Source: Gammaproteobacteria bacterium (GTDB lineage Bacteria > Pseudomonadota > Gammaproteobacteria > JBCCGL01). Taken from it: a stretch of DNA of 64,000 bases. The notes below the pieces were generated by a model that worked only from the letters and a program-made list of their open reading frames with translations, ran no database searches and was not told where the DNA came from. Numbering within the stretch: the first letter of the stretch is position 1; each line of letters starts with the position of its first letter. The DNA lies in assembly GCA_965277715.1 (NCBI GenBank), contig OZ255836.1, positions 4,096,001 through 4,160,000 of the forward strand, in the 5' to 3' direction. Below, piece after piece: positions 38,662 to 53,241 of this stretch. A program made the translations under genes and the position numbers.

Positions 38662-39034
38662 CTGCGTTGCTCTACCTCCTGTGTCCCTACAGTCGTCGGC
38701 AACTGCTCCTGCGTTGCTCTACCTCCTGTGTCCCTACAGTCGTCGGCAACTGCTCCTGCGTTGCTCTATCTCCTGTGTCCCTACAGTCGTCGGCAACTGC
38801 TCCTGCGTTGCTCTATCTCCTGTGTCCCTACAGTCGTCGGCAACTGCTCCTGCGTTGCTCTATCTCCTGTGTCCCTACAGTCGTCGGCAACTGCTCCTGC
38901 GTTGCTCTATCTCCTGTGTCCCTACAGTCGTCGGCAACTGCTCCTGCGTTGCTCTATCTCCTGTGTCCCTACAGTCGTCGGCAACTGCTCCTGCGTTGCT
39001 CTAGCTCCTGTGTCCCTACAGTCGTCGGTAACTG
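38662..39034. repeat. Tandem array of 8 x 47-bp hairpin-containing units without spacers
   Basis: Unit CTGCGTTGCTCTA(C/T/G)CTCCTGTGTCCCTACAGTCGTCGGCAACTGCTC starts at 38662, 38709, 38756, 38803, 38850, 38897, 38944 and 38991; the last copy decays. Confidence 0.97.
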
Positions 39035-39399: not shown

Positions 39400-39990
39400 T
39401 CACTTTTTCATAAATTCAACAAACACTACAGCCGAGCCGTTGATAAGAATGCTTTCAACGTCGGATAAGGGTATTTCCGTATTTTCGCTATCAAGCCAGC
39501 TCGCCTCCCTGAGTAGAAAATGGCCGCTATGCGGTTCAGTTGGCCATTCTGAAGGCCAGCCGTATATTCTTCTACCATCATCCAGGTGCAATACAACATA
39601 GGTTATATTGTCGGCAAAGGCGCTAAACCACTCGGACGCATAAGATGTTTCGCGGGTGATAGCGAGTTTTCTCATCAGCGCGTGAAACTTATCATTGTTT
39701 GCAAAATAAGCAAACACTAGACCCAATAGCAATGATGTTATTAAGGCGCTGAGTAATTCGGTATTGGTATTCCATTCTATCCATCCGGGGTGTAGGCCCG
39801 TTACATTGGCCAGTGCTTTAAACAGAAACCCTAAACCCTGGATAATAATAGTAAATATGAGTGCTTGAACAACCCGTTCAAAATGGGATTGCTTGGGGTA
39901 GGAGGTAAAGGCATAAAAAATCCACGCGGTGACGAAGCCGGGCAGCAGATATTGCAATAGTGATATAACACCGGTGTTGATTAAATCCAT
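39400..39990 (-). CDS. DUF6338-like membrane protein
   Basis: YLLPGF first helix, three TM segments, then EW..AF...YVVLHL.DGRRIYGW...W. Confidence 0.7.
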   Translation of the reverse strand: MDLINTGVISLLQYLLPGFVTAWIFYAFTSYPKQSHFERVVQALIFTIIIQGLGFLFKALANVTGLHPGWIEWNTNTELLSALITSLLLGLVFAYFANNDKFHALMRKLAITRETSYASEWFSAFADNITYVVLHLDDGRRIYGWPSEWPTEPHSGHFLLREASWLDSENTEIPLSDVESILINGSAVVFVEFMKK

Positions 39991-40123: not shown

Positions 40124-41593
40124 ATGGAACAGCACAATATTTTGATACTCGGCGCCAGCCCCTGGAATCTTCACCGGGTTAGCCATGATGTAGAAATTCG
40201 TAATATACAAAAAGCCATAAAAAAAAGTAGTGGCGCAGATGCATTCTCTATCGAAACCAACTCCGCCGCGCAGTATCAGGATTTAGGCGAGGCGGTTTTG
40301 GCGCAGCAACCGCATATCCTGCATTTCTGTGGGCATGGCGGGGGTGATGTGGGGTTGGTTTTTGTGGATGAAGATAACAACGCCCAGCTCGCGGATAACA
40401 CGGCTATGGAAAAACTCATCCGTATGCTGGGCAATCATGTGCGCTGTGTGTTTCTCAATGCCTGTTACAGTGAGGTGCAGGCAAAGTTACTAATTCCTCA
40501 TGTCGACTATGTTATTGGCGTGCAGGGCACAGTGGGTGATGCCGACGCTCAGGCGTTTAGCACGGCATTTTATGAAAAACTGGGGGCTGGTTACCCGCTT
40601 ACCTATGCTTTTGAGTTGGCCTACAACGACCACTACCACGCCGAGCACTGTCGGCCAGTGTTGCTCAGCCGCAGTGAGCACCGCCTCTACCACAGTGATC
40701 TCGATACCCTCAATGAAATAAGCCAACGGTTGCAAACCGTCACCCCTGGTATTGCCCTCCTGGGCCAGGCGGGCCGTATCAGTGCTGCTTTGCCTCCAGC
40801 ACTGCGAGCACGGATGCAGGGAACCTTTGGCCCTGAACGGGTATTAACACTTAGCCCCGTCAGTGACGACAAACAACAAGGTGCATTTTTTGCCCATCTC
40901 GCCGAGCAGGCGCAGTCTGATCAGGTCGACTTTAGCGGGTTAGCAACCGTCTTACAGCACCGGGTGGAAGACGGTAGCCTGCGCTGCCTGTTGCTAGGCC
41001 ATTTGCAGCGCGGTAGCGCTGAAGAGTCCCGGCAACTGGCCGAGTTGTTGCGCAATTTATGTGAAGGGGGGCGGTTAAAGGTGGTGATTTACGGTGAGCG
41101 AAGACTGCGCGATTTAATGGTGCTTAACGGTGCGCTATCACCGCTGAATATGTTGGATTCACTCTACCTTGCCGAGTTGGGTGTAGAGGATGTTCTCAAG
41201 CTTGAGCCAGAGTTGAAGAGAGAAGAAGCCGAGGATTTGTTGGCGCTGTCTGGCGGGCACCCACGGCTGTTGCGTGAAGCGCTGTTTTGCTATCGCCAAC
41301 AACCCAATCTGAATAAGGTAGCCGAGCAGTTGCAAACTGCGGTCGATGATATTGTCGATCAATGTCTTTGTGATTTTCGGGGGCAGGAGGATAGTATGGT
41401 GTTGTTAGCGGATTGCTTGCGTGAAGAACGGGCGGGTTACCGAGCAGACTTGATAGGTGATGAAGTGTTGGCGGCTTTATATTGGCATAACTTGCTGCGG
41501 CAGCAGGGGCATCAGTTGTACTGGCGTTGTAGTTTATTGCGTGAGACGGTGGAAGCAGTAGCGGCCAGCCTGGCCCGGCGGGCGGGGGTGTGA
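40124..41593 (+). CDS. CHAT (caspase-like) protease domain fused to a degenerate AAA/STAND-like domain
   Basis: HFCGHG (40322) and FLNAC (40451) give the catalytic dyad, followed by AFY. The C-terminal half has LSGGHPRLL (GxP motif) but no recognisable Walker A or B. Confidence 0.85.
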   Translation: MEQHNILILGASPWNLHRVSHDVEIRNIQKAIKKSSGADAFSIETNSAAQYQDLGEAVLAQQPHILHFCGHGGGDVGLVFVDEDNNAQLADNTAMEKLIRMLGNHVRCVFLNACYSEVQAKLLIPHVDYVIGVQGTVGDADAQAFSTAFYEKLGAGYPLTYAFELAYNDHYHAEHCRPVLLSRSEHRLYHSDLDTLNEISQRLQTVTPGIALLGQAGRISAALPPALRARMQGTFGPERVLTLSPVSDDKQQGAFFAHLAEQAQSDQVDFSGLATVLQHRVEDGSLRCLLLGHLQRGSAEESRQLAELLRNLCEGGRLKVVIYGERRLRDLMVLNGALSPLNMLDSLYLAELGVEDVLKLEPELKREEAEDLLALSGGHPRLLREALFCYRQQPNLNKVAEQLQTAVDDIVDQCLCDFRGQEDSMVLLADCLREERAGYRADLIGDEVLAALYWHNLLRQQGHQLYWRCSLLRETVEAVAASLARRAGV

Positions 41594-41594
41594 T

Positions 41595-44500
41595 GTGCAG
41601 TTGAGACTTAGCGTGGCGTTACGCTACGGCTTACTATTGGGTTTGTGTGTGGGGTGGCTGCCGTTGGGGGTAGTGGCGGATGCTGTGCGACCGGCTTTGG
41701 TGCCTGCGGGTGAGCAGTTGGCTAGTGGTGAAGGGGCGTTGGATAGTTTGGCTCGGCGTTTGAATACACGCTTGGGCACTGTCCATCACGCGGCCTTCAG
41801 CCCGCAGGGAGATCGCATCGTTACGGCATCGAGTGATAACACTGCGCGGCTGTGGAATGCAGACAATGGCGAACTGATTGTGGTGCTTGAGGGGCATACG
41901 GATTGGGTTAATCACGCGGCTTTCAGCCCGCAGGGAGATCGAATCGTTACGGCATCGGATGATAATACTGCGCGGTTATGGAACGCAGACAATGGCGAAC
42001 TGATTGCGGTGCTTGAGGGGCATACGGGCAGAGTTTATCACGCGGCCTTCAGCCCGCAGGGAGATCGCATCGTTACGGCATCGGGTGATGATACTGCGCG
42101 GCTGTGGAACGCAGACGATGGTGAACTGATCGATGTGCTTAAGGGGCATACGGATTGGGTTAATCACGCGGCTTTCAGTCCACAGGGAGATCGAATCGTT
42201 ACGGCATCGGATGATAATACTGCGCGGTTATGGAACGCAGACAATGGCGAACTGATTGCGGTGCTTGAGGGGCATACGGGCAGAGTTTATCACGCGGCCT
42301 TCAGCCCGCAGGGAGATCGCATCGTTACGGCATCGGGTGATGATACTGCGCGGCTGTGGAACGCAGACGATGGTGAACTGATCGATGTGCTTAAGGGGCA
42401 TACGGATTGGGTTAATCACGCGGCTTTCAGTCCACAGGGAGATCGAATCGTTACGGCATCGGATGATAATACTGCGCGGTTATGGAACGCAGACAATGGC
42501 GAACTGATTGCGGTGCTTGAGGGGCATACGGGCAGAGTTTATCACGCGGCCTTCAGCCCGCAGGGAGATCGCATCGTTACGGCATCGGGTGATGATACTG
42601 CGCGGCTGTGGAACGCAGACGATGGTGAACTGATCGATGTGCTTAAGGGGCATACGGATTGGGTTAATCACGCGGCTTTCAGTCCACAGGGAGATCGAAT
42701 CGTTACGGCATCGGATGATAATACTGCGCGGTTATGGAACGCAGACAATGGCGAACTGATTGCGGTGCTTGAGGGGCATACGGGCAGAGTTTATCACGCG
42801 GCCTTCAGCCCGCAGGGAGATCGCATCGTTACGGCGTCGAGAGATAACACTGCGCGGCTGTGGAACGCGGGCGATGGCGAACTGATCGCGGTGCTTGAGG
42901 GGCATACGGGCAGAGTTTATCACGCGGCTTTCAGCCCGCAGGGAGATCGCATCGTTACGGCATCGAGAGATAACACTGCGCGGCTGTGGAATGCAGACAA
43001 TGGCGAACTGATTGTGGTGCTTGAGGGGCATACGAGTTGGGTTTATCACGCGGCCTTCAGCCCGCAGGGAGATCGCATCGTTACGGCATCGAGAGATAAC
43101 ACTGCGCGGCTGTGGAATGCAGACAATGGCGAACTGATTGTGGTGCTTGAGGGGCATAGGAATAGGTTTTATCACGCGGCCTTCAGCCCGCAGGGAGATC
43201 GCATCGTTACGGTATCGGGTGATGATACTGCGCGGCTGTGGAATGCAGACGATGGTGAACTGATCGATGTGCTTAAGGGGCATACGGATTGGGTTAATCA
43301 CGCGGCTTTCAGTCCACAGGGAGATCGAATCGTTACGGCATCGGGAGATAACACTGCGCGGCTGTGGAATGCAGACAATGGCGAACTGATTGTGGTGCTT
43401 GAGGGGCATAGGAATAGGGTTTCTCACGCGGCCTTCAGCCCGCAGGGAGATCGCATCGTTACGGCATCGGGTGATGATACTGCGCGGCTGTGGAATGCAG
43501 ACAATGGCGAACTGATTGCGGTGCTTGAGGGGCATAGGAATAGGGTTTCTCACGCGGCCTTCAGCCCGCAGGGAGATCGTATCGTTACGGCATCTAGGGG
43601 TAAGACTGTGCGGCTGTGGAGCGCAGACGATGGCGAACTGATCGCGGTGTTTGAGGGGCATACGGATCGGGTTACTCACGCAGCCTTCAGCCCGCAGGGT
43701 AATCGCATTGTCACCGCCTCATTCGATGGCAGTATAAGACTATGGGACACAGATACAGCTAAACCGCTACGGCTTATGGTGGCCACCAGCAACGGCCAAT
43801 GGCTAAACTGCCAGGCGAACGGCCATTGCTTACGCCACGACGATGGCACATTGTTTTGGCCGCCTCTACCTCCCCAGGCCACAGGCGGTAAACTGAGCCT
43901 GGAAAATCTGCCCGAGGCGACAATCGACACCTGTATGTCGCTGCCTTGCGAGCCACGCGACTTTGTTGTCGGGATTCGCAATACCGGCACCGCGCCACTC
44001 TATTGGCTACAAGTGGTCTCGGCAGAAAGCGGCCCTGTCTCACTGTCATTACCCCCACCGCCGTTACCGCCATTGCACCCCGATGATCATGTTGAGCTAA
44101 GCATACGCCTGGCCAGCGTAGCACCCACACAGCAACCCCAGCGCCAAAACACCAGTATAAAATTGGCTATTCGCCACGCCCATGGCGAATTACCAATAGA
44201 CCTGCCAGTAACCGTGCGCACCCCAGAGATTACTCTGCTGGAAGCCAGCCTGACAGAAAACCGCGAAACCATCGCAGTGCAGGTGAGTAACCACGGCGGG
44301 GTTTCACTATCCCAGGCGGTTGCAGAGGCCGCCATCAATGGCCAGGCGATACCCGGTAGCCTTAACCTTCCAGTGCTTCCGGGCAATATGTCGAAACCAC
44401 AACAATTGGCTTTTACGGCGCCCGCAGATTTTAACTACCCGGACGACACTGAGTTCACTTTGCAGTTGCGCAACGCCAACTACCCCCATTATCAGTGGAC

Positions 44501-46217
44501 ACTCAAACACCCGCTCACCCTGCCCTGGCAACTCTATACCTTGCTGGCAGCACTGATTCTGGTGCTTGGCGGGCTGGCCTGGTTTGTCGGTGTGCGCTGG
44601 CATCCACTGGTGCGGCTGGCGGTTAATCAAGGCCCCACCGCGCTGGCACTGCCCCAGCTGGGCCAGGCGCGCCGCTGGCTGCAACGCGCCCGCCTGTGGC
44701 GGGATACCGTGCAGGCGCAAGGGCTGGCAGCGCGCTGGCAAAGCGCCGAGGCGTTTTTGGCCTGCCCTGACCCGGTGCAGCAAATCGAACAACTGGCCGG
44801 GCGTTTACAGGCCGAGGTGTTGCCCGCGAATGAGGCTACCCCCACCTGGCTGGCCACCTTGCGTCTTAACGAAGGCTTTATCCTGCGCTTACCACAGTGC
44901 ACGGTGGCGCTGCCCGGCGCCGATCATTCTATCGACCAGATCACCACTCAGCTACGCCGTTGCGAAGGTGTATGCCTGCTAATCACCACAGACCCGGATC
45001 AACAGGCCGCGCTGCGCGCCGACCGCCAGGCCACCTGGGTGATACCGGACAACCAGGCTTTGGTGCGCCTATGGCTGGCAGCGGCGGATAAGGTTAACGA
45101 TCAACTGGCCTCTATTATCGCCGAGCAGGTCGATACCCGTAGCCTTTCGCCCTGGCGCACTGGTCACGGTATGGAGGATATGACGATGTTTTTTGGCCGC
45201 GACCAGTTACTGCGCGATATCCTCGAACGACCACCGCGTAACTACCTGCTGGTTGGGGCGCGGCAGCTGGGTAAAACCAGTCTGCTGCAAAAACTGCAAC
45301 ATCTCTGCGATCAGCGCGATACATTGCGTGGCTTTAAAATCTCGCTGGGCTCCGGCCATTTTGCCATCGATTTGCAACGCATCGCTGGGCAGTTGGCGTT
45401 GGCGCGCAACGCCTCTTTGCCAGACATTCTCACTGCGTTGGCGCACCCGCCCGCCGGGATCCATCACTGGTTGTTAGTCGACGAGGCCGACGAGCTGGCG
45501 GGCAACCACACCCCGGAAAATGCAGCGGTTTTAGATCAAATGCGCAACCTGAGCGCCGAGGGCCGCTGTCATTTTATCCTCGCCGGGTTTTGGGGCCTGT
45601 ACCGTGAGGCGATACTGGAGTACCAATCAAAACTGAAAAACTTTGGTGACCTGCTGCTGTTGGATGCTCTGGAAGACAAGGCCAGCCGGGCGCTACTCAC
45701 CCGGCCTATGCACGCCTTGCAGATTCACTACCAGGATGACACCCTGGTAACGCGGATTCTGCACGAGACCGGCGGGCGCACTAATTTGCTGGCTATTGTC
45801 GCCGATGACCTGGTGCGCCGACTTGGCAATCAACGCCGGGTGATTACCGATGAAGATATCAGCGAAGTGCTAAACGATGCGGTGTTTCAGGATCGCCTGC
45901 TCGACTGGAAAACACTATCAGGGAATATACTAGATCAAATACTGGTATACGCTAGTATCGACCTCAACCCACTAGAGCAGGGTTTTACCGAGGCTGAATT
46001 ATGGCAACGGTTGGATGAATTGGGAGACGAAGTATCCGATGATGCCGTACAAAATTCGCTGATTCGTTTACGGCTGGGATTTATCATCAAACGCGTTGGT
46101 GGACGTTACTACTATCGCGTGCCCGTGCAAGTACAGCAAATCCTCGACAGCGAACCGGAGCGTGCCTTGCGTAGATTGCTCAATTCTTTAGTCGGTGATA
46201 TATCGAAACAATGTTGA
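41595..46217 (+). CDS. Signal peptide - 16 WD40 repeats - beta-rich domains - TM helix - STAND/AAA ATPase receptor-like protein
   Basis: Hydrophobic N-terminus ending VVA-DA; GH...WN repeats; TM helix LYTLLAALILVLGGLAWFVGV (about 44530-44595); FFGRD, Walker A GARQLGKTS (45255-45281), Walker B LLVDEAD, TGGRT. Confidence 0.88.
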   Translation: MQLRLSVALRYGLLLGLCVGWLPLGVVADAVRPALVPAGEQLASGEGALDSLARRLNTRLGTVHHAAFSPQGDRIVTASSDNTARLWNADNGELIVVLEGHTDWVNHAAFSPQGDRIVTASDDNTARLWNADNGELIAVLEGHTGRVYHAAFSPQGDRIVTASGDDTARLWNADDGELIDVLKGHTDWVNHAAFSPQGDRIVTASDDNTARLWNADNGELIAVLEGHTGRVYHAAFSPQGDRIVTASGDDTARLWNADDGELIDVLKGHTDWVNHAAFSPQGDRIVTASDDNTARLWNADNGELIAVLEGHTGRVYHAAFSPQGDRIVTASGDDTARLWNADDGELIDVLKGHTDWVNHAAFSPQGDRIVTASDDNTARLWNADNGELIAVLEGHTGRVYHAAFSPQGDRIVTASRDNTARLWNAGDGELIAVLEGHTGRVYHAAFSPQGDRIVTASRDNTARLWNADNGELIVVLEGHTSWVYHAAFSPQGDRIVTASRDNTARLWNADNGELIVVLEGHRNRFYHAAFSPQGDRIVTVSGDDTARLWNADDGELIDVLKGHTDWVNHAAFSPQGDRIVTASGDNTARLWNADNGELIVVLEGHRNRVSHAAFSPQGDRIVTASGDDTARLWNADNGELIAVLEGHRNRVSHAAFSPQGDRIVTASRGKTVRLWSADDGELIAVFEGHTDRVTHAAFSPQGNRIVTASFDGSIRLWDTDTAKPLRLMVATSNGQWLNCQANGHCLRHDDGTLFWPPLPPQATGGKLSLENLPEATIDTCMSLPCEPRDFVVGIRNTGTAPLYWLQVVSAESGPVSLSLPPPPLPPLHPDDHVELSIRLASVAPTQQPQRQNTSIKLAIRHAHGELPIDLPVTVRTPEITLLEASLTENRETIAVQVSNHGGVSLSQAVAEAAINGQAIPGSLNLPVLPGNMSKPQQLAFTAPADFNYPDDTEFTLQLRNANYPHYQWTLKHPLTLPWQLYTLLAALILVLGGLAWFVGVRWHPLVRLAVNQGPTALALPQLGQARRWLQRARLWRDTVQAQGLAARWQSAEAFLACPDPVQQIEQLAGRLQAEVLPANEATPTWLATLRLNEGFILRLPQCTVALPGADHSIDQITTQLRRCEGVCLLITTDPDQQAALRADRQATWVIPDNQALVRLWLAAADKVNDQLASIIAEQVDTRSLSPWRTGHGMEDMTMFFGRDQLLRDILERPPRNYLLVGARQLGKTSLLQKLQHLCDQRDTLRGFKISLGSGHFAIDLQRIAGQLALARNASLPDILTALAHPPAGIHHWLLVDEADELAGNHTPENAAVLDQMRNLSAEGRCHFILAGFWGLYREAILEYQSKLKNFGDLLLLDALEDKASRALLTRPMHALQIHYQDDTLVTRILHETGGRTNLLAIVADDLVRRLGNQRRVITDEDISEVLNDAVFQDRLLDWKTLSGNILDQILVYASIDLNPLEQGFTEAELWQRLDELGDEVSDDAVQNSLIRLRLGFIIKRVGGRYYYRVPVQVQQILDSEPERALRRLLNSLVGDISKQC
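41778..43750 (+). repeat. Intragenic 126-bp WD40 tandem repeat, 16 copies, including a 252-bp higher-order repeat
   Basis: The HAAFSPQG codons recur from 41787 to 43677 (15 x 126 bp). Repeats 2-8 alternate A-B-A-B-A-B-A. Confidence 0.97.
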
Positions 46218-46339
46218 GGAGCGCATAACGGTAGACTGTAAGCGCCCTTAAATCAGCCTCTATTCCAAGGTAATGTCCAAAACGACATTCCAAGGTAGCA
46301 AGGCCTCTATCTTTTCAAGGAAAAAAAAAGAAAAAAAAA

Positions 46340-46440
46340 GGGGTCAAGGCAGTTATTTCCTATATTTCTTGCTGGAAATCACTGTTTTTATCCGTATTAG
46401 TCGTTGTATGGTGAATAATAAGCCTGACCCCCTTGCTTTT
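46340..46440. repeat. 92-bp REP/MITE-like element, copy 1, with CTTGCTTTT tail
   Basis: GGGGTCAAGGC...GCCTGACCCC ends; near-identical to the copies at 50414 and 53242. Confidence 0.92.
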
Positions 46441-46818
46441 AGGCTACGCAAAATTAGCCACAGCAGAAATACAATACCAGCGAGCTGGATGGTTATACCG
46501 AGAACAGCATTCATAAGGGGTTTCTCCAGATTACGCCGGGGGAACCTCCTTCCCTGCCGGGAAGAAAAACCCCGGCAGGGTGGTTAAAACAAAATAAAAA
46601 CAAAAAATAATGGGCTGCTTCTTTTGAGAGACCAGCTATCTCTTAGGGCATACCTATCGGCAACGCCCTGACACTGACCGGGGTCAGCAATAAGTAGAAA
46701 CCAAGATAGCGTGTCCTGCTAGAACGGGCAGTGAAGAAGATGGCAGTTTTTAACACCTATCGCACCGCCACAAAAATACACTGGTACTACCCTGATATTT
46801 TTATCTGGTGGCAATGTT

Positions 46819-50000: not shown

Positions 50001-50411
50001 GTGACTGATTTCTTGTTTAAGCACAGCACCACGGTTGGCCAGCCCGGCTATTTTTTGCATGGTTTGTTATTAGACGGAAACCCCACATTCAGTGAAGGCG
50101 TGTACAGGCTTAACCATTGGGCCGTGCGCTTAGGCCGCGATGCGCATTCAGATGAAGCCCGCATGGCTTCTTTGCACGAAATGTATCATGCGACATTGAA
50201 CGACAGTACTGCATACGGAACGTTAATGCATGTGGTGGGATTATTTTGCCGCACCTATCCAGAAGAGAACCAATGGCCGAATCTTTTGCAGGCGCTTATC
50301 GACTCAGCGTTGCGCTGCCATGAAACCTATGCAACCTACGCGTCTGTATTTGTTGTTGGTAAAGGCTCGCCGAACAGAGCTGTGCTCGAACAGTATCCTG
50401 AAAGTCATTAA
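50001..50411 (+). pseudogene. HExxH metallopeptidase-like gene, probably 3'-truncated
   Basis: LHEMYH plus downstream HETYATY; the frame stops 2 nt before element copy 2. Confidence 0.55.
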
Positions 50412-50413
50412 AA

Positions 50414-50514
50414 GGGGTCAAGACAGTTATTTCCTATATTTCTTGCTGGAAACCACTGTTTTTATCCGTATTAGTCGTTGTATGGTGAATAATAAGCCTG
50501 ACCCCCTTGCTTTT
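50414..50514. repeat. 92-bp REP/MITE-like element, copy 2, with CTTGCTTTT tail
   Basis: Two substitutions relative to copy 1. Confidence 0.92.
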
Positions 50515-50736
50515 CAAATTATGCGGGCGCATGCGAATCTCACTGGTGCAGATGCTGATGGTTGGCTGACATCTCGTCAGGTTGCTGGATATCATCATGA
50601 CGTATTTGCAACATATGGATTACCTGCCAGGACTTTTGGTGGAACGCCAATAACAAGCGCTTTGTGGGAGTCAAACATTAATTTTGGAGGTTTTTTGGGC
50701 TACCGATATTGGTGTGATGGATGTGCTTCTCAATGA
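50515..50736 (+). pseudogene. Putative orphan polymorphic-toxin (Rhs-type) C-terminal fragment
   Basis: QIMRAH...YHHDVF..YGLP..TFGGTP...WCDGCASQ* begins right at the element tail; its stop overlaps the next ATG (ATGA). Confidence 0.5.
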
Positions 50737-51675: not shown

Positions 51676-53241
51676 GAATGGCACTTCCTTAAGCTCTAAG
51701 TACATGAAAAATATGGAAGTACTTTCATTGTAAATGACCTATTTCTGTTTTTTGGGATGGCCATATTTTTTAACAACACTTCTGGCCACGTCCCTTGGCT
51801 GCATCAATAAAGGATACGGTTTGGGTCTTCGTTTAACCACTCTTGGTTCAATACGCCCCGGTCGATTACCCACACAGTTTTCTGCAATCAACGCACATAG
51901 CGCCAACACCTTATCACTACCCAGAGGGCTACCGCCTTTCTGATAACGATACGTTACCCAAATTTGTAACGTATGCTTAAAACTTATCTGTCGAGGCAGT
52001 ATGTCCACTAGTAAGGCAGATTGCGCCATTAATAAGCGAATAAGGTTGTAAGCTAATATGTGTACCCACATTTCCTTCTCAACCATTTCTGGCGTCTTAC
52101 AACGGAAAGTGTGCATCTTCATTGTCGTTTTTATATGGCGTAAATCAAGTTCGACATGCCAGCGTTCTTTGTAGAGCTGTTTAAGCGCCTCTTTAGACGC
52201 CGATTTAACTGATAACAACGTTGTCACCAACAGTTTTTTACCCACTTTCAGTTCACGTATAACCACTTCATCAGCAGCCGCTTCATAGGCTTCTTCGCTC
52301 ATCCACTCTGGTCTCTTCTTGGGCTTTGTATAACAAATCAGATGATCCTTCGATCCAAGCCTTTTGCCTTCTCGAAAATCTGTGGATTTACGCCGCGCAC
52401 CATGCGGCTCAAATACACCGTCTACTCCTTGCTCTATAAGGTTTGCTAGAAAAAAATAACCCGCAAAATAGGCATCACCCACCACAATATCACCCGGTTT
52501 AAGCGCATTTTGTATTTTTCTCAATAACGTTTGCTCATCCGCTCCCTTACCTTTAAAAGGACCCATTGCCGCATCGAGAACACCACCACTGGCTAAACAA
52601 ATAATTCCTACCCAGCGACAAAGAGGAAAACCGATCCCCACTTGCTGGCCTGACTGTTGCGGATAAACTACCTGATTTTCAGGCGTATCGGGCATTGTCA
52701 CAGTGGTGCCGTCAACCAATTTAACTGAACGCCCTTGCCAGTGCCAGTGACTGGCCGCTTCATTCGCCACACACTCGCCTGTACAACGGGCAAGCCCTGA
52801 GACGAGGGGGGTTGGCAGCCTTTGTCGCGCTTTACAATAACTCCCTGTATACGTATTACTCACTGATAAACCTTCACTTAATCGCTGTACAGCGAGTGTG
52901 TTGACAGCTTGTTGGCAGGACTGATCTGCACTCATTGTTTGGTATAAAAACAGCGATAAGGTATCTAGAGGAGGATAGCGACGCGCTCGAAAATCCGGTT
53001 GTAATTCTTCCAGTTTCGTAAGTAACTGAGAGGATGTCAGCAAGTGATAAAAACTCAATGCATCCGAGGATTGAGCTCGGCTTTTGATGCGACGTTGAAG
53101 AATGTTGACTTTTACATTACTCTGCATGATGGCTGGTTCCTGTGGGATAAAGGGTATTTGTGTTGGCAACAAATAACCTACCATAGAACCAGCTTTTTTT
53201 GTAATTACTTCAAATACTTACAGCTTAAGGAAGTGCCATTC
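51676..53241 (-). mobile_element. IS4-family insertion sequence
   Basis: Perfect 20-bp terminal inverted repeats GAATGGCACTTCCTTAAGCT / AGCTTAAGGAAGTGCCATTC, extending imperfectly to about 33 bp and enclosing one transposase. Confidence 0.92.
51739..53127 (-). CDS. IS4-family DDE transposase
   Basis: LVDGT, VGDAYF and Y..RW.VE...R..K (YREK signature); C-terminal RPGRIEPRVVKRRPK. Confidence 0.93.
   Translation of the reverse strand: MQSNVKVNILQRRIKSRAQSSDALSFYHLLTSSQLLTKLEELQPDFRARRYPPLDTLSLFLYQTMSADQSCQQAVNTLAVQRLSEGLSVSNTYTGSYCKARQRLPTPLVSGLARCTGECVANEAASHWHWQGRSVKLVDGTTVTMPDTPENQVVYPQQSGQQVGIGFPLCRWVGIICLASGGVLDAAMGPFKGKGADEQTLLRKIQNALKPGDIVVGDAYFAGYFFLANLIEQGVDGVFEPHGARRKSTDFREGKRLGSKDHLICYTKPKKRPEWMSEEAYEAAADEVVIRELKVGKKLLVTTLLSVKSASKEALKQLYKERWHVELDLRHIKTTMKMHTFRCKTPEMVEKEMWVHILAYNLIRLLMAQSALLVDILPRQISFKHTLQIWVTYRYQKGGSPLGSDKVLALCALIAENCVGNRPGRIEPRVVKRRPKPYPLLMQPRDVARSVVKKYGHPKKQK

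Follow-up and report, generated by a model that had tools for sequence, protein, structure and literature searches.

The nSTAND1 family was named for soluble proteins with the order effector, nucleoside triphosphatase (NTPase) and sensor (Kaur, Iyer, Burroughs, Aravind 2021, eLife, PMC8195603). The same paper describes a two-gene operon which combines an active STAND protein with an inactive one carrying GT4 or HEPN effectors, and for which a hetero-multimer was proposed. A MoxR-vWA pair is the defining feature of the iSTAND and iSTAND2 ternary systems, in which iSTAND is the proposed sensor (Kaur et al. 2020, 2021). Moreover, 'transmembrane STAND ATPases' were named in passing among the sensors fused to Pepco-linked proteases (preprint 10.1101/2025.11.14.688446), and a predicted periplasmic NACHT-lectin target appears in Dore et al. 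(10.1101/2023.09.22.558884). Here we analysed a pair of adjacent genes in a stretch of 64,000 nucleotides from a Gammaproteobacteria bacterium (contig OZ255836.1, positions 4,096,001 to 4,160,000; the window), in which gene 1 encodes a CHAT domain fused to an inactive STAND module and gene 2 a receptor with WD40 repeats, one membrane crossing and an nSTAND1 NTPase. The two genes probably belong together as a STAND (NLR-like) signalling system that spans the membrane, and this would most likely serve as a conflict or immunity system. Our literature search returned no description of the receptor family, of the adaptor or of an experiment on such a topology (supplementary tables may list the architecture), in agreement with the remark in an earlier note on this DNA (the original prediction) that no experimentally characterised system was known to have it.

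The usual nSTAND1 order, with effector, NTPase and repeat sensor in one soluble chain, is not that of the pair, in which the sensor is N-terminal, a transmembrane (TM) helix lies between the sensor and the NTPase, and the effector is carried by the other protein. The inverted and membrane-split order that the original prediction had set against effector-NTPase-sensor is therefore borne out by the domain order and the TM position. The gene 2 product starts with Arg4, Arg10 and a hydrophobic stretch at residues 9-31 (17-residue core), then VVA/DA, and its mature N-terminal motif reads ALVPAGEQLA where the homologues have PPLVPEGEQLA. The WD40 repeats number 16 by Pfam (E 1.1e-172) and also 16 by our own parse, each of exactly 42 residues, and are followed by a stalk (residues 730-979), which has two pairs of Cys residues and matches CARDB weakly (E 0.029, below the cut-off). 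The cytoplasmic part (540 residues) was modelled by AlphaFold2 (predicted local distance difference test, pLDDT, 80.4; predicted template modelling score, pTM, 0.50) as a juxtamembrane helical bundle with a small alpha/beta unit, a disordered linker and an ATPase-helical-winged-helix module. In this last module, the Walker residues G, K and D do not vary among 23 aligned sequences, and the Foldseek matches comprise 2qen, 2fna, Cdc6/ORC, CED-4, Avs4 and ZAR1 (E 1e-8 to 2e-5). Since the match to the nSTAND1 family model (PF20703, residues 191-404 of the cytoplasmic piece) is weak, with E 1.3e-9 and 38.7 bits against a cut-off of 27.1, the gene 2 NTPase is best regarded as a divergent nSTAND1 branch. 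The juxtamembrane domain had no Pfam match, and its best Atlas score (0.84) is below the level that counts and serves as a lead only; the receptor profile gave chance-level P-loop matches only against the sequences of solved structures (E 0.16 or worse), and PADLOC-DB v2 gave WD40-driven matches to gene 2, and PDC-S01 at E 0.011-0.039. Hydropathy, Pfam and the Walker A and B motifs thus agree with the order first ascribed to this gene, in that they give a signal-peptide-like N-terminus, 16 WD40 repeats, one TM helix and a STAND ATPase.

The propellers are placed outside the cytoplasm because of the N-terminal hydrophobic segment and the single TM helix with its Arg-rich flank on the NTPase side. 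The former was found in 15 of 16 receptor homologues, often directly before a PPLVPEGE-type motif, the exception being P0031, whose first residue is not a start and whose N-terminus looks cut; the latter, with a flank of the RxxRHPL type, was found in all 16. Ectodomain cysteines are few (0-7, with an even count in 13 of the 16 receptors), and a CX5C loop is conserved. These counts, based on hydropathy, uphold the periplasmic WD40 region and cytoplasmic NTPase that had been claimed. It is very improbable that the WD40 region is cytoplasmic after all, the N-terminal stretch being no export signal and the protein an ordinary STAND protein tethered to the membrane. Such a reading could draw on the fact that WD40 propellers are known mostly from cytoplasmic proteins, and on the open reading frames (ORFs) of loci L009, L010, L012 and L019, which start within WD40 repeats and have no signal, but these signal-less ORFs begin at contig ends or in repeat regions often broken in assemblies. 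Moreover, it conflicts with the conservation of the mature motif behind the hydrophobic N-terminus and of the Arg-rich flank, and with the two hydrophobic segments having their positive flanks at the outer ends, which puts the region between them on the far side of the membrane; NHL and Reg_prop ectodomains and a CARDB-like stalk are also typical extracytoplasmic modules.

The sequence of the gene 1 product identifies it as a CHAT protease in which both the His and the Cys motif known from an active SAVED-CHAT enzyme are present, and its activity is predicted. The CHAT family (PF12770) matches residues 15-176 with E 5.2e-9 and 36.4 bits against a curated cut-off of 24, and the solved SAVED-CHAT protease 8tl0 is matched both by sequence (E 6e-11) and, for the N-terminal part, by Foldseek (E 3.5e-9, root-mean-square deviation of ~3.3 A, ~195 columns). 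In the alignment, HFCGHG is paired with HFIGHG of 8tl0 and LNAC with the LNAC of that enzyme, whose His and Cys are taken to be its catalytic residues, and the same motifs are kept in P0003, P0004, P0006, P0016 and P0018. The intact HFCGHG/FLNAC dyad claimed at the outset is thus confirmed by a Pfam match above the cut-off and by the alignment with 8tl0. In PADLOC-DB v2, CHAT models alone match gene 1 (E 8.5e-8 and 3.5e-6), with the SAVED_CHAT match spanning the CHAT part only, and a search for relatives of near length gave a single full-length CHAT-type relative (P0003, 30% identity).

The C-terminal 300 residues of gene 1 gave in Pfam a weak AAA_35 match alone (E 3e-3, below the cut-off). 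In the AlphaFold2 model (pLDDT 88.2, pTM 0.77, built on 23 sequences), this part matches the STAND/ORC-type ATPases 2qen and 2fna and CED-4, and also Avs4 (8dgf), by Foldseek. The motifs GxxxxGK[ST] and hhhhDE were found neither in gene 1 nor in the 15 partners aligned with it; in gene 1, LLGQAGRIS occupies the place of Walker A and CLLLGHLQ that of Walker B, next to a GxP-like SGGHPRLL motif and a winged-helix-like C-terminal end (LYW...LYWRC). Across the 16 aligned modules, the GxP-like motif (SGGHPxLL) and the C-terminal LYWxNLL...RLxWRC end are kept. The module is therefore considered an ATPase-dead STAND module, given the lack of a P-loop and of an acidic Walker B in all 16 together with the STAND-like fold, and the degenerate NTPase first suspected here is a feature of all 16 aligned partners. 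Searched against the sequences of solved structures, the partner-module profile gave no match at E up to 10, and NCBIfam gave nothing useful.

Relatives of the receptor were recovered by a word-indexed search, which gave eight proteins of the same layout, with 38-41% identity over the cytoplasmic part and a widely varying WD40 number, as well as one form with the layout Reg_prop-TM-NTPase and another built on an FtsW-like membrane domain. A locus scan with one genome per species yielded 34 receptor loci (L numbers below; P numbers denote proteins), mostly from Thiomargarita, Parabeggiatoa, Thiotrichaceae and Chromatiaceae, but also from Desulfococcaceae, Syntrophobacteraceae, Planctomycetaceae and others. 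The ectodomains are WD40 repeats in most loci and NHL propellers in L008 and L014, so that, with the Reg_prop form, the swapped ectodomains that had been suggested as a check were found. The weakest match of the scan, L034 (Nocardia), is a canonical caspase-nSTAND1-WD40 protein (nSTAND1 E 2e-104). In 17 of the 34 loci, the partner-module profile detected a partner gene on the same strand immediately before the receptor gene (15 partners complete, one frameshifted in L009 and one cut by the contig end in L030), and 13 of the 17 other loci have no upstream DNA. In the reverse direction, all six matches of the partner profile in five genomes adjoin a receptor. The co-occurrence of the two genes thus extends well beyond the window, as the original prediction would have it.

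Several loci depart from the simple layout. The ectodomain is encoded in a separate frame in L006 and L021, and L004, L005 and L013 show a gap of ~1.5-1.9 kb. In two loci of Thiomargarita/Thiotrichaceae type, an extra gene (222-351 aa) lies between partner and receptor (L001:7166-7834 and L041:10423-11478, minus strand), and in these two loci the partner has an N-terminus that looks like two TM helices rather than an enzyme domain. A canonical soluble CHAT-NB-ARC-TPR protein of 1316 aa is encoded at L007:336-4286, at a distance of ~4 kb on the upstream side of a receptor which lacks the dead-STAND partner.

The only module common to the partners is the C-terminal one, the CHAT half of gene 1 matching none of them in a single-sequence search. 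As for the N-terminal domains of the locus partners, ten are TIR_2 (including the broken one of L009), three are weak helix-turn-helix (HTH) matches and three, among them those of L001 and L041, are unassigned. The weak HTH partners are those of L008 and L014, where they accompany NHL receptors and suggest a transcriptional output in that branch, and that of L013, whose ectodomain is unreadable. An exhaustive profile search brought the adaptor family to 498 representative clusters at 50% identity, of which 236 had an E value no higher than 1e-30; with this number of clusters and its many outputs, the family is a sizeable unexplored group and not a single oddity. A Pfam scan of the first 108 of the top 150 representatives gave TIR_2 as output in 50, CHAT in five, SEFIR in four, HTH_3 in four and EAD2 in two, with Trypsin, Metallophos, ParA-like and alpha/beta hydrolase outputs in one each. 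Ten long adaptor members include a protein kinase (P0162) and the combinations CHAT+TIR, TIR+caspase and ParA+TIR, and in three of them (P0147, P0078 and P0126) an AAA_15/AAA_21 (ABC/OLD-type) ATPase lies C-terminal to the module, which may therefore have NTPase partners of a different kind as well. Since HTH and kinase outputs occur, the platform is not merely a protease activator. Thus, the original prediction is supported, with all of its computational checks that were run coming out in its favour, and needs one correction: the part of the partner that is kept is the dead STAND module, and TIR exceeds CHAT tenfold in the census. The constant link of the pair is this module, and CHAT is a minority output among many.

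Complex prediction points to a contact between this constant module and the receptor. While BLASTP of the C-terminal half of the partner against the cytoplasmic part of the receptor found nothing (best E 0.62), hhalign aligned the two modules with E 3e-4 over 245 collinear columns, with Walker B, GxP and the winged-helix end in register, and the best ATPase matches of both models are identical (2qen and 2fna). The complex of the receptor cytoplasmic part with the partner module, a model of which had been proposed for both NTPase modules, scored 0.75, 0.73 and 0.73 (median 0.73), and the three controls scored 0.01, 0.00 and 0.00. Of 80 solved complexes, 58 attained the mark for this score, as did 2 of 110 mismatched pairs; these counts hold only roughly here, since our own alignments were used. 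The runs agreed in at least 82% of contacts, with a partner pLDDT of at least 85. The predicted interface comprises juxtamembrane, linker, P-loop-adjacent (243-245 of the modelled part), winged-helix and C-terminal-helix residues on the receptor side, and includes an invariant Arg (Arg310 of P0001) on the partner side. Binding of the partner module to the cytoplasmic part of the receptor is therefore supported by the models.

Such a heterodimer could also be an off state, in which the partner acts as a brake, the dead module capping or poisoning receptor oligomers or restraining the protease, and activation being dissociation. The large predicted interface, with its P-loop-adjacent residues, linker and C-terminal helix, could indeed block homo-oligomerisation, and inactive paralogues as dominant negatives are discussed for related systems by Kaur et al. 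2020. We nevertheless regard a brake as improbable, since the module carries outputs that require proximity (TIR, caspase-fold) and since a precedent of an active and an inactive STAND pair was read as an effector-carrying toroidal hetero-multimer (Kaur et al. 2021). The present data do not directly discriminate between the partner as brake and the partner as client of the receptor.

The sensor part of gene 2 consists of two propellers' worth of fast-evolving WD40 repeats. Tandem Repeats Finder (TRF) counts 15.3 copies of a 126-bp unit in this region; repeats 3, 5 and 7 are 100% identical among themselves at the DNA level, as are repeats 4, 6 and 8, and a 252-bp double unit occurs three times. 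Mean repeat identity is 0.81 within gene 2 versus 0.35 to the repeats of other receptors, in which the same tendency is seen (0.42-0.80 within a protein versus 0.44 between proteins). The differences between repeats cluster at positions 3-7 (just after the GH dipeptide), 23-26 (around the Asp of the SxDxT turn), 33-34 and 39. Such positions sit on the top face of WD40 propellers, the usual ligand-binding side. Near-identical repeats that vary at a few positions offer a natural handle on the evolution of specificity.

Altogether, the domain composition, the predicted topology, the gene pairing, the exchange of outputs and sensors and the supported heterodimer model are results of computation, and we infer from them a ligand, oligomerisation, activation, a substrate and a biological role along the following lines. 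The signal peptide would export the receptor, so that the WD40 propellers and the Cys-stabilised stalk stand in the periplasm, one helix crosses the membrane, and the juxtamembrane domain and the active nSTAND1 ATPase are cytoplasmic; the partner would carry the output, here CHAT, on an ATPase-dead STAND paralogue docked on the cytoplasmic part of the receptor. A ligand would first be bound by the periplasmic propellers, and a signal through the single helix and the juxtamembrane domain would alter the state or the clustering of the receptor. The nSTAND1 ATPase would then turn on and the receptor-partner units oligomerise, and the output domains, once gathered, would activate one another through their closeness, as is the case in the apoptosome of CED-4 and CED-3, in assemblies of TIR domains and in SAVED-CHAT filaments. 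For CED-3 on CED-4 and for TIR assemblies, activation by proximity is well established.

The same architecture could serve something other than immunity, either as a general transducer of envelope or environmental signals or as a device for kin or self/non-self programmed death in colonial bacteria, with outputs that span transcription (HTH), phosphorylation (kinase) and cell death (TIR, CHAT). The weak HTH partners of L008, L014 and L013, the HTH_3 outputs of the census and the kinase of P0162 fit this reading, as does the origin of many loci in large or colonial sulfur bacteria (Thiomargarita, Parabeggiatoa, Thiotrichaceae, Chromatiaceae). In addition, the window holds no defence-island context, and highly alike WD40 repeats resemble those of fungal allorecognition receptors of the HET-E type. 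However, TIR, CHAT, SEFIR, trypsin and EAD2 belong to the conflict-system vocabulary of Kaur et al. 2020/2021, and the pair lies at the edge of a low-GC, transposase-bearing stretch, as mobile defence genes often do. A role outside immunity is therefore rather unlikely, though less so than a brake.

A number of points weigh against the conflict or immunity system that we favour. The topology is based on hydropathy, the positive-inside rule and conservation. The hhalign probability of partner against receptor module is only 39%, the complex score is the model's own confidence, and part of the complex pass may reflect likeness at the level of the fold, because AAA+/STAND heteromers (ORC/Cdc6, CED-4, RFC) have been solved. 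The adaptor is not exclusive to the receptor, given the ABC/OLD-type ATPases of three of its ten long members, and L007, L018, L019 and L034 have no partner despite ample upstream DNA. The exact 252-bp copies could conceal an assembly error in the repeat number. The NTPase part had no match in PADLOC at E < 0.01, and the neighbourhood of the pair in the window is free of phage and defence genes, which leaves analogy as the ground for the immunity label; HTH and kinase outputs equally fit plain signal transduction. With these points in mind, we tentatively propose, as somewhat less than an even prospect, that the pair represents an undescribed and widespread class of transmembrane NLR-like receptors, whose diversifying periplasmic propellers would sense an invader or a foreign cell while it is still at the envelope and has not yet reached the cytoplasm, and whose STAND ATPase and dead-STAND adaptor would drive interchangeable TIR, caspase-like, kinase and DNA-binding outputs. 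If true, sensing on the outside as in Toll-like receptors would be joined to the oligomerising switch of NLRs and the apoptosome in one prokaryotic system.

Table 1. Features of the gene pair, with positions in the window
Feature	Position	Strand	Basis and details
Gene 1, CHAT protease fused to inactive STAND module	40124..41593	+	ORF, 489 aa, ATG start, P0001
CHAT (caspase-fold) domain	40124..40690	+	Pfam, match to 8tl0, motifs
His motif HFCGHG	40322-40339	+	residues 67-72
Cys motif FLNAC	40451-40465	+	residues 110-114
Inactive STAND-like adaptor module	40691..41590	+	alignment of 16 partners, hhalign, Foldseek
Gene 2, predicted membrane-spanning receptor	41595..46217	+	ORF, 1540 aa, GTG start, P0002
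Signal-peptide-like N-terminus and mature N-terminal motif	41595..41687	+	hydropathy, conservation
16 WD40 repeats, 42 aa (126 bp) each	41766..43781	+	Pfam, repeat parse, TRF
Stalk region	43782..44531	+	Cys motifs, weak CARDB-like match
Conserved Cys loop WLNCQANGHC	43800-43829	+	stalk
Second Cys pair	43926-43949	+	stalk
Single TM helix, then RWHPL (positive cytoplasmic flank)	44532..44600	+	residues 980-1002
Conserved juxtamembrane domain, no named family	44601..45146	+	AlphaFold2 blocks, pLDDT ~90
nSTAND1 NTPase with helical and winged-helix parts	45198..46214	+	PF20703, Foldseek, invariant columns
Walker A GARQLGKT	45255-45278	+	residues 1221-1228
Walker B LLVDEAD	45471-45491	+	residues 1293-1299

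The two ORFs confirm the two-gene unit with a 1-bp gap that had been described, both genes lying on the same strand with a single nucleotide between them (Table 1). In the database, the gene 2 product is entered with 1534 aa (P0023), its start being placed six codons later at the following in-frame GTG (41613), which makes the gap 19 nt, and the hydrophobic N-terminus of the product is retained with either start. Chance alone is far from explaining frames of 489 and 1540 codons that carry such domain matches. Upstream of the pair lie genes for flagellin, FliD, FliS-like and FliT-like proteins and a FleQ-type sigma-54 activator, and between this activator and the pair a 47-bp tandem repeat is followed by a divergent gene for a DUF6338 membrane protein. 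The best named relatives of this activator, at 79% identity or less, come from metagenome-assembled genomes labelled only 'Pseudomonadota' or 'Gammaproteobacteria bacterium', and the host would be a flagellated gammaproteobacterium. The tandem repeat (38662-39034, 7.9 copies, 99% matches) separates the genes for the FleQ-type regulator and the DUF6338 protein, and the long overlapping ORFs within it are repeat artefacts. The DUF6338 gene (39400-39990, minus strand) lies directly upstream of gene 1 and is absent beside the related systems. Six neighbouring ORFs were compared with the surroundings of the related systems and gave 0 matches, so that the two genes by themselves make up the unit.

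Directly downstream of the pair, the guanine-plus-cytosine (GC) content falls to 0.42-0.46 between ~46000 and 56000, compared with ~0.52 elsewhere, and this stretch holds a DDE_Tnp_1 transposase gene (51739-53184, minus strand) and several ORFs without a Pfam family. The translations of the ORFs at 46273-46587 and 50230-50736 have a stretch of ~35 residues in common, which points to a repeated DNA element. The scan for promoters and terminators did no better than its shuffled controls (9 versus 7.3 expected and 10 versus 8.1 expected). No gasdermin family was found among the window neighbours scanned with Pfam and no third gene is conserved with the pair, which accords with the earlier remark that no gasdermin is visible. 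Likewise, neither MoxR nor vWA occurs among the ten window neighbours scanned with Pfam, a scan that did not extend to the related loci.

Compared with known systems, the pair has most in common, for the logic of docking, with the operon of active and inactive STAND proteins with GT4 or HEPN effectors, which is its closest precedent. In both, one STAND protein is active and the other combines eroded NTP-binding motifs with variable effectors, but the operon uses another STAND family (RNA12/CR-ATPase-like, according to its authors) and other effectors, and the passages on it in PMC8195603 name neither a membrane span nor an extracytoplasmic sensor. With the canonical nSTAND1 conflict proteins of the same paper, the pair shares the PF20703 NTPase family, WD40 sensors and caspase or TIR outputs, but it is sensor-first and NTPase-last, its receptor chain passes through the membrane, and its output is on a separate protein. 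The iSTAND systems likewise have an ATPase-dead STAND module as a constant component of a conflict system, although in those systems that module is the proposed sensor and here it is the output carrier. Membership in an iSTAND ternary system was ruled out by the lack of MoxR and vWA among the neighbours scanned, and the EACC1 two-gene membrane system (Kaur et al. 2020) by its different components.

Other comparable systems are known from solved structures. In the CED-4/CED-3 apoptosome and in Apaf-1/caspase-9 (4m9s, 8jol), too, a caspase-fold protease is activated by its proximity on an oligomer of STAND proteins, and Foldseek matched CED-4 chains with each of the two proteins of the pair; the apoptosome differs in being cytoplasmic, in recruiting its protease by CARD-CARD contacts and not by a dead ATPase module, and in having no membrane span. 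The SAVED-CHAT protease of type III CRISPR (8tl0) is the closest solved relative of the CHAT domain of gene 1, and this enzyme is taken to be active as an assembly because the entry is titled as an activated filament. Membership in Craspase or SAVED-CHAT systems was ruled out, with no SAVED domain and no CRISPR context, and so was a CHAT-gasdermin pair, with no gasdermin among the neighbours scanned. Of the Avs and bNACHT proteins, Avs4 (8dgf) is among the fold matches of both proteins of the pair, but these are soluble single chains with the order effector-NTPase-sensor, and no PADLOC model matches the NTPase of the pair.

What is unusual here is the predicted extracytoplasmic sensor, the proposed signal through the membrane and the inactive-STAND adaptor family of about 500 clusters. 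To our knowledge, every experimentally characterised STAND/NLR immune receptor senses inside the cytoplasm; a sensor on the outside, combined with an output carried by a dead-ATPase adaptor, would demonstrate the ability of STAND switches to signal across a membrane, and the pair would offer a simple and modular two-gene system for how the binding of a ligand outside drives the oligomerisation of an ATPase inside. Toll-like receptors likewise have a repeat sensor outside the cytoplasm and a single membrane crossing, and TIR is the most frequent output of the adaptor family, but they contain no NTPase, and the likeness is one of layout and not of descent. The receptor family would be a bacterial counterpart of surface pattern-recognition receptors.

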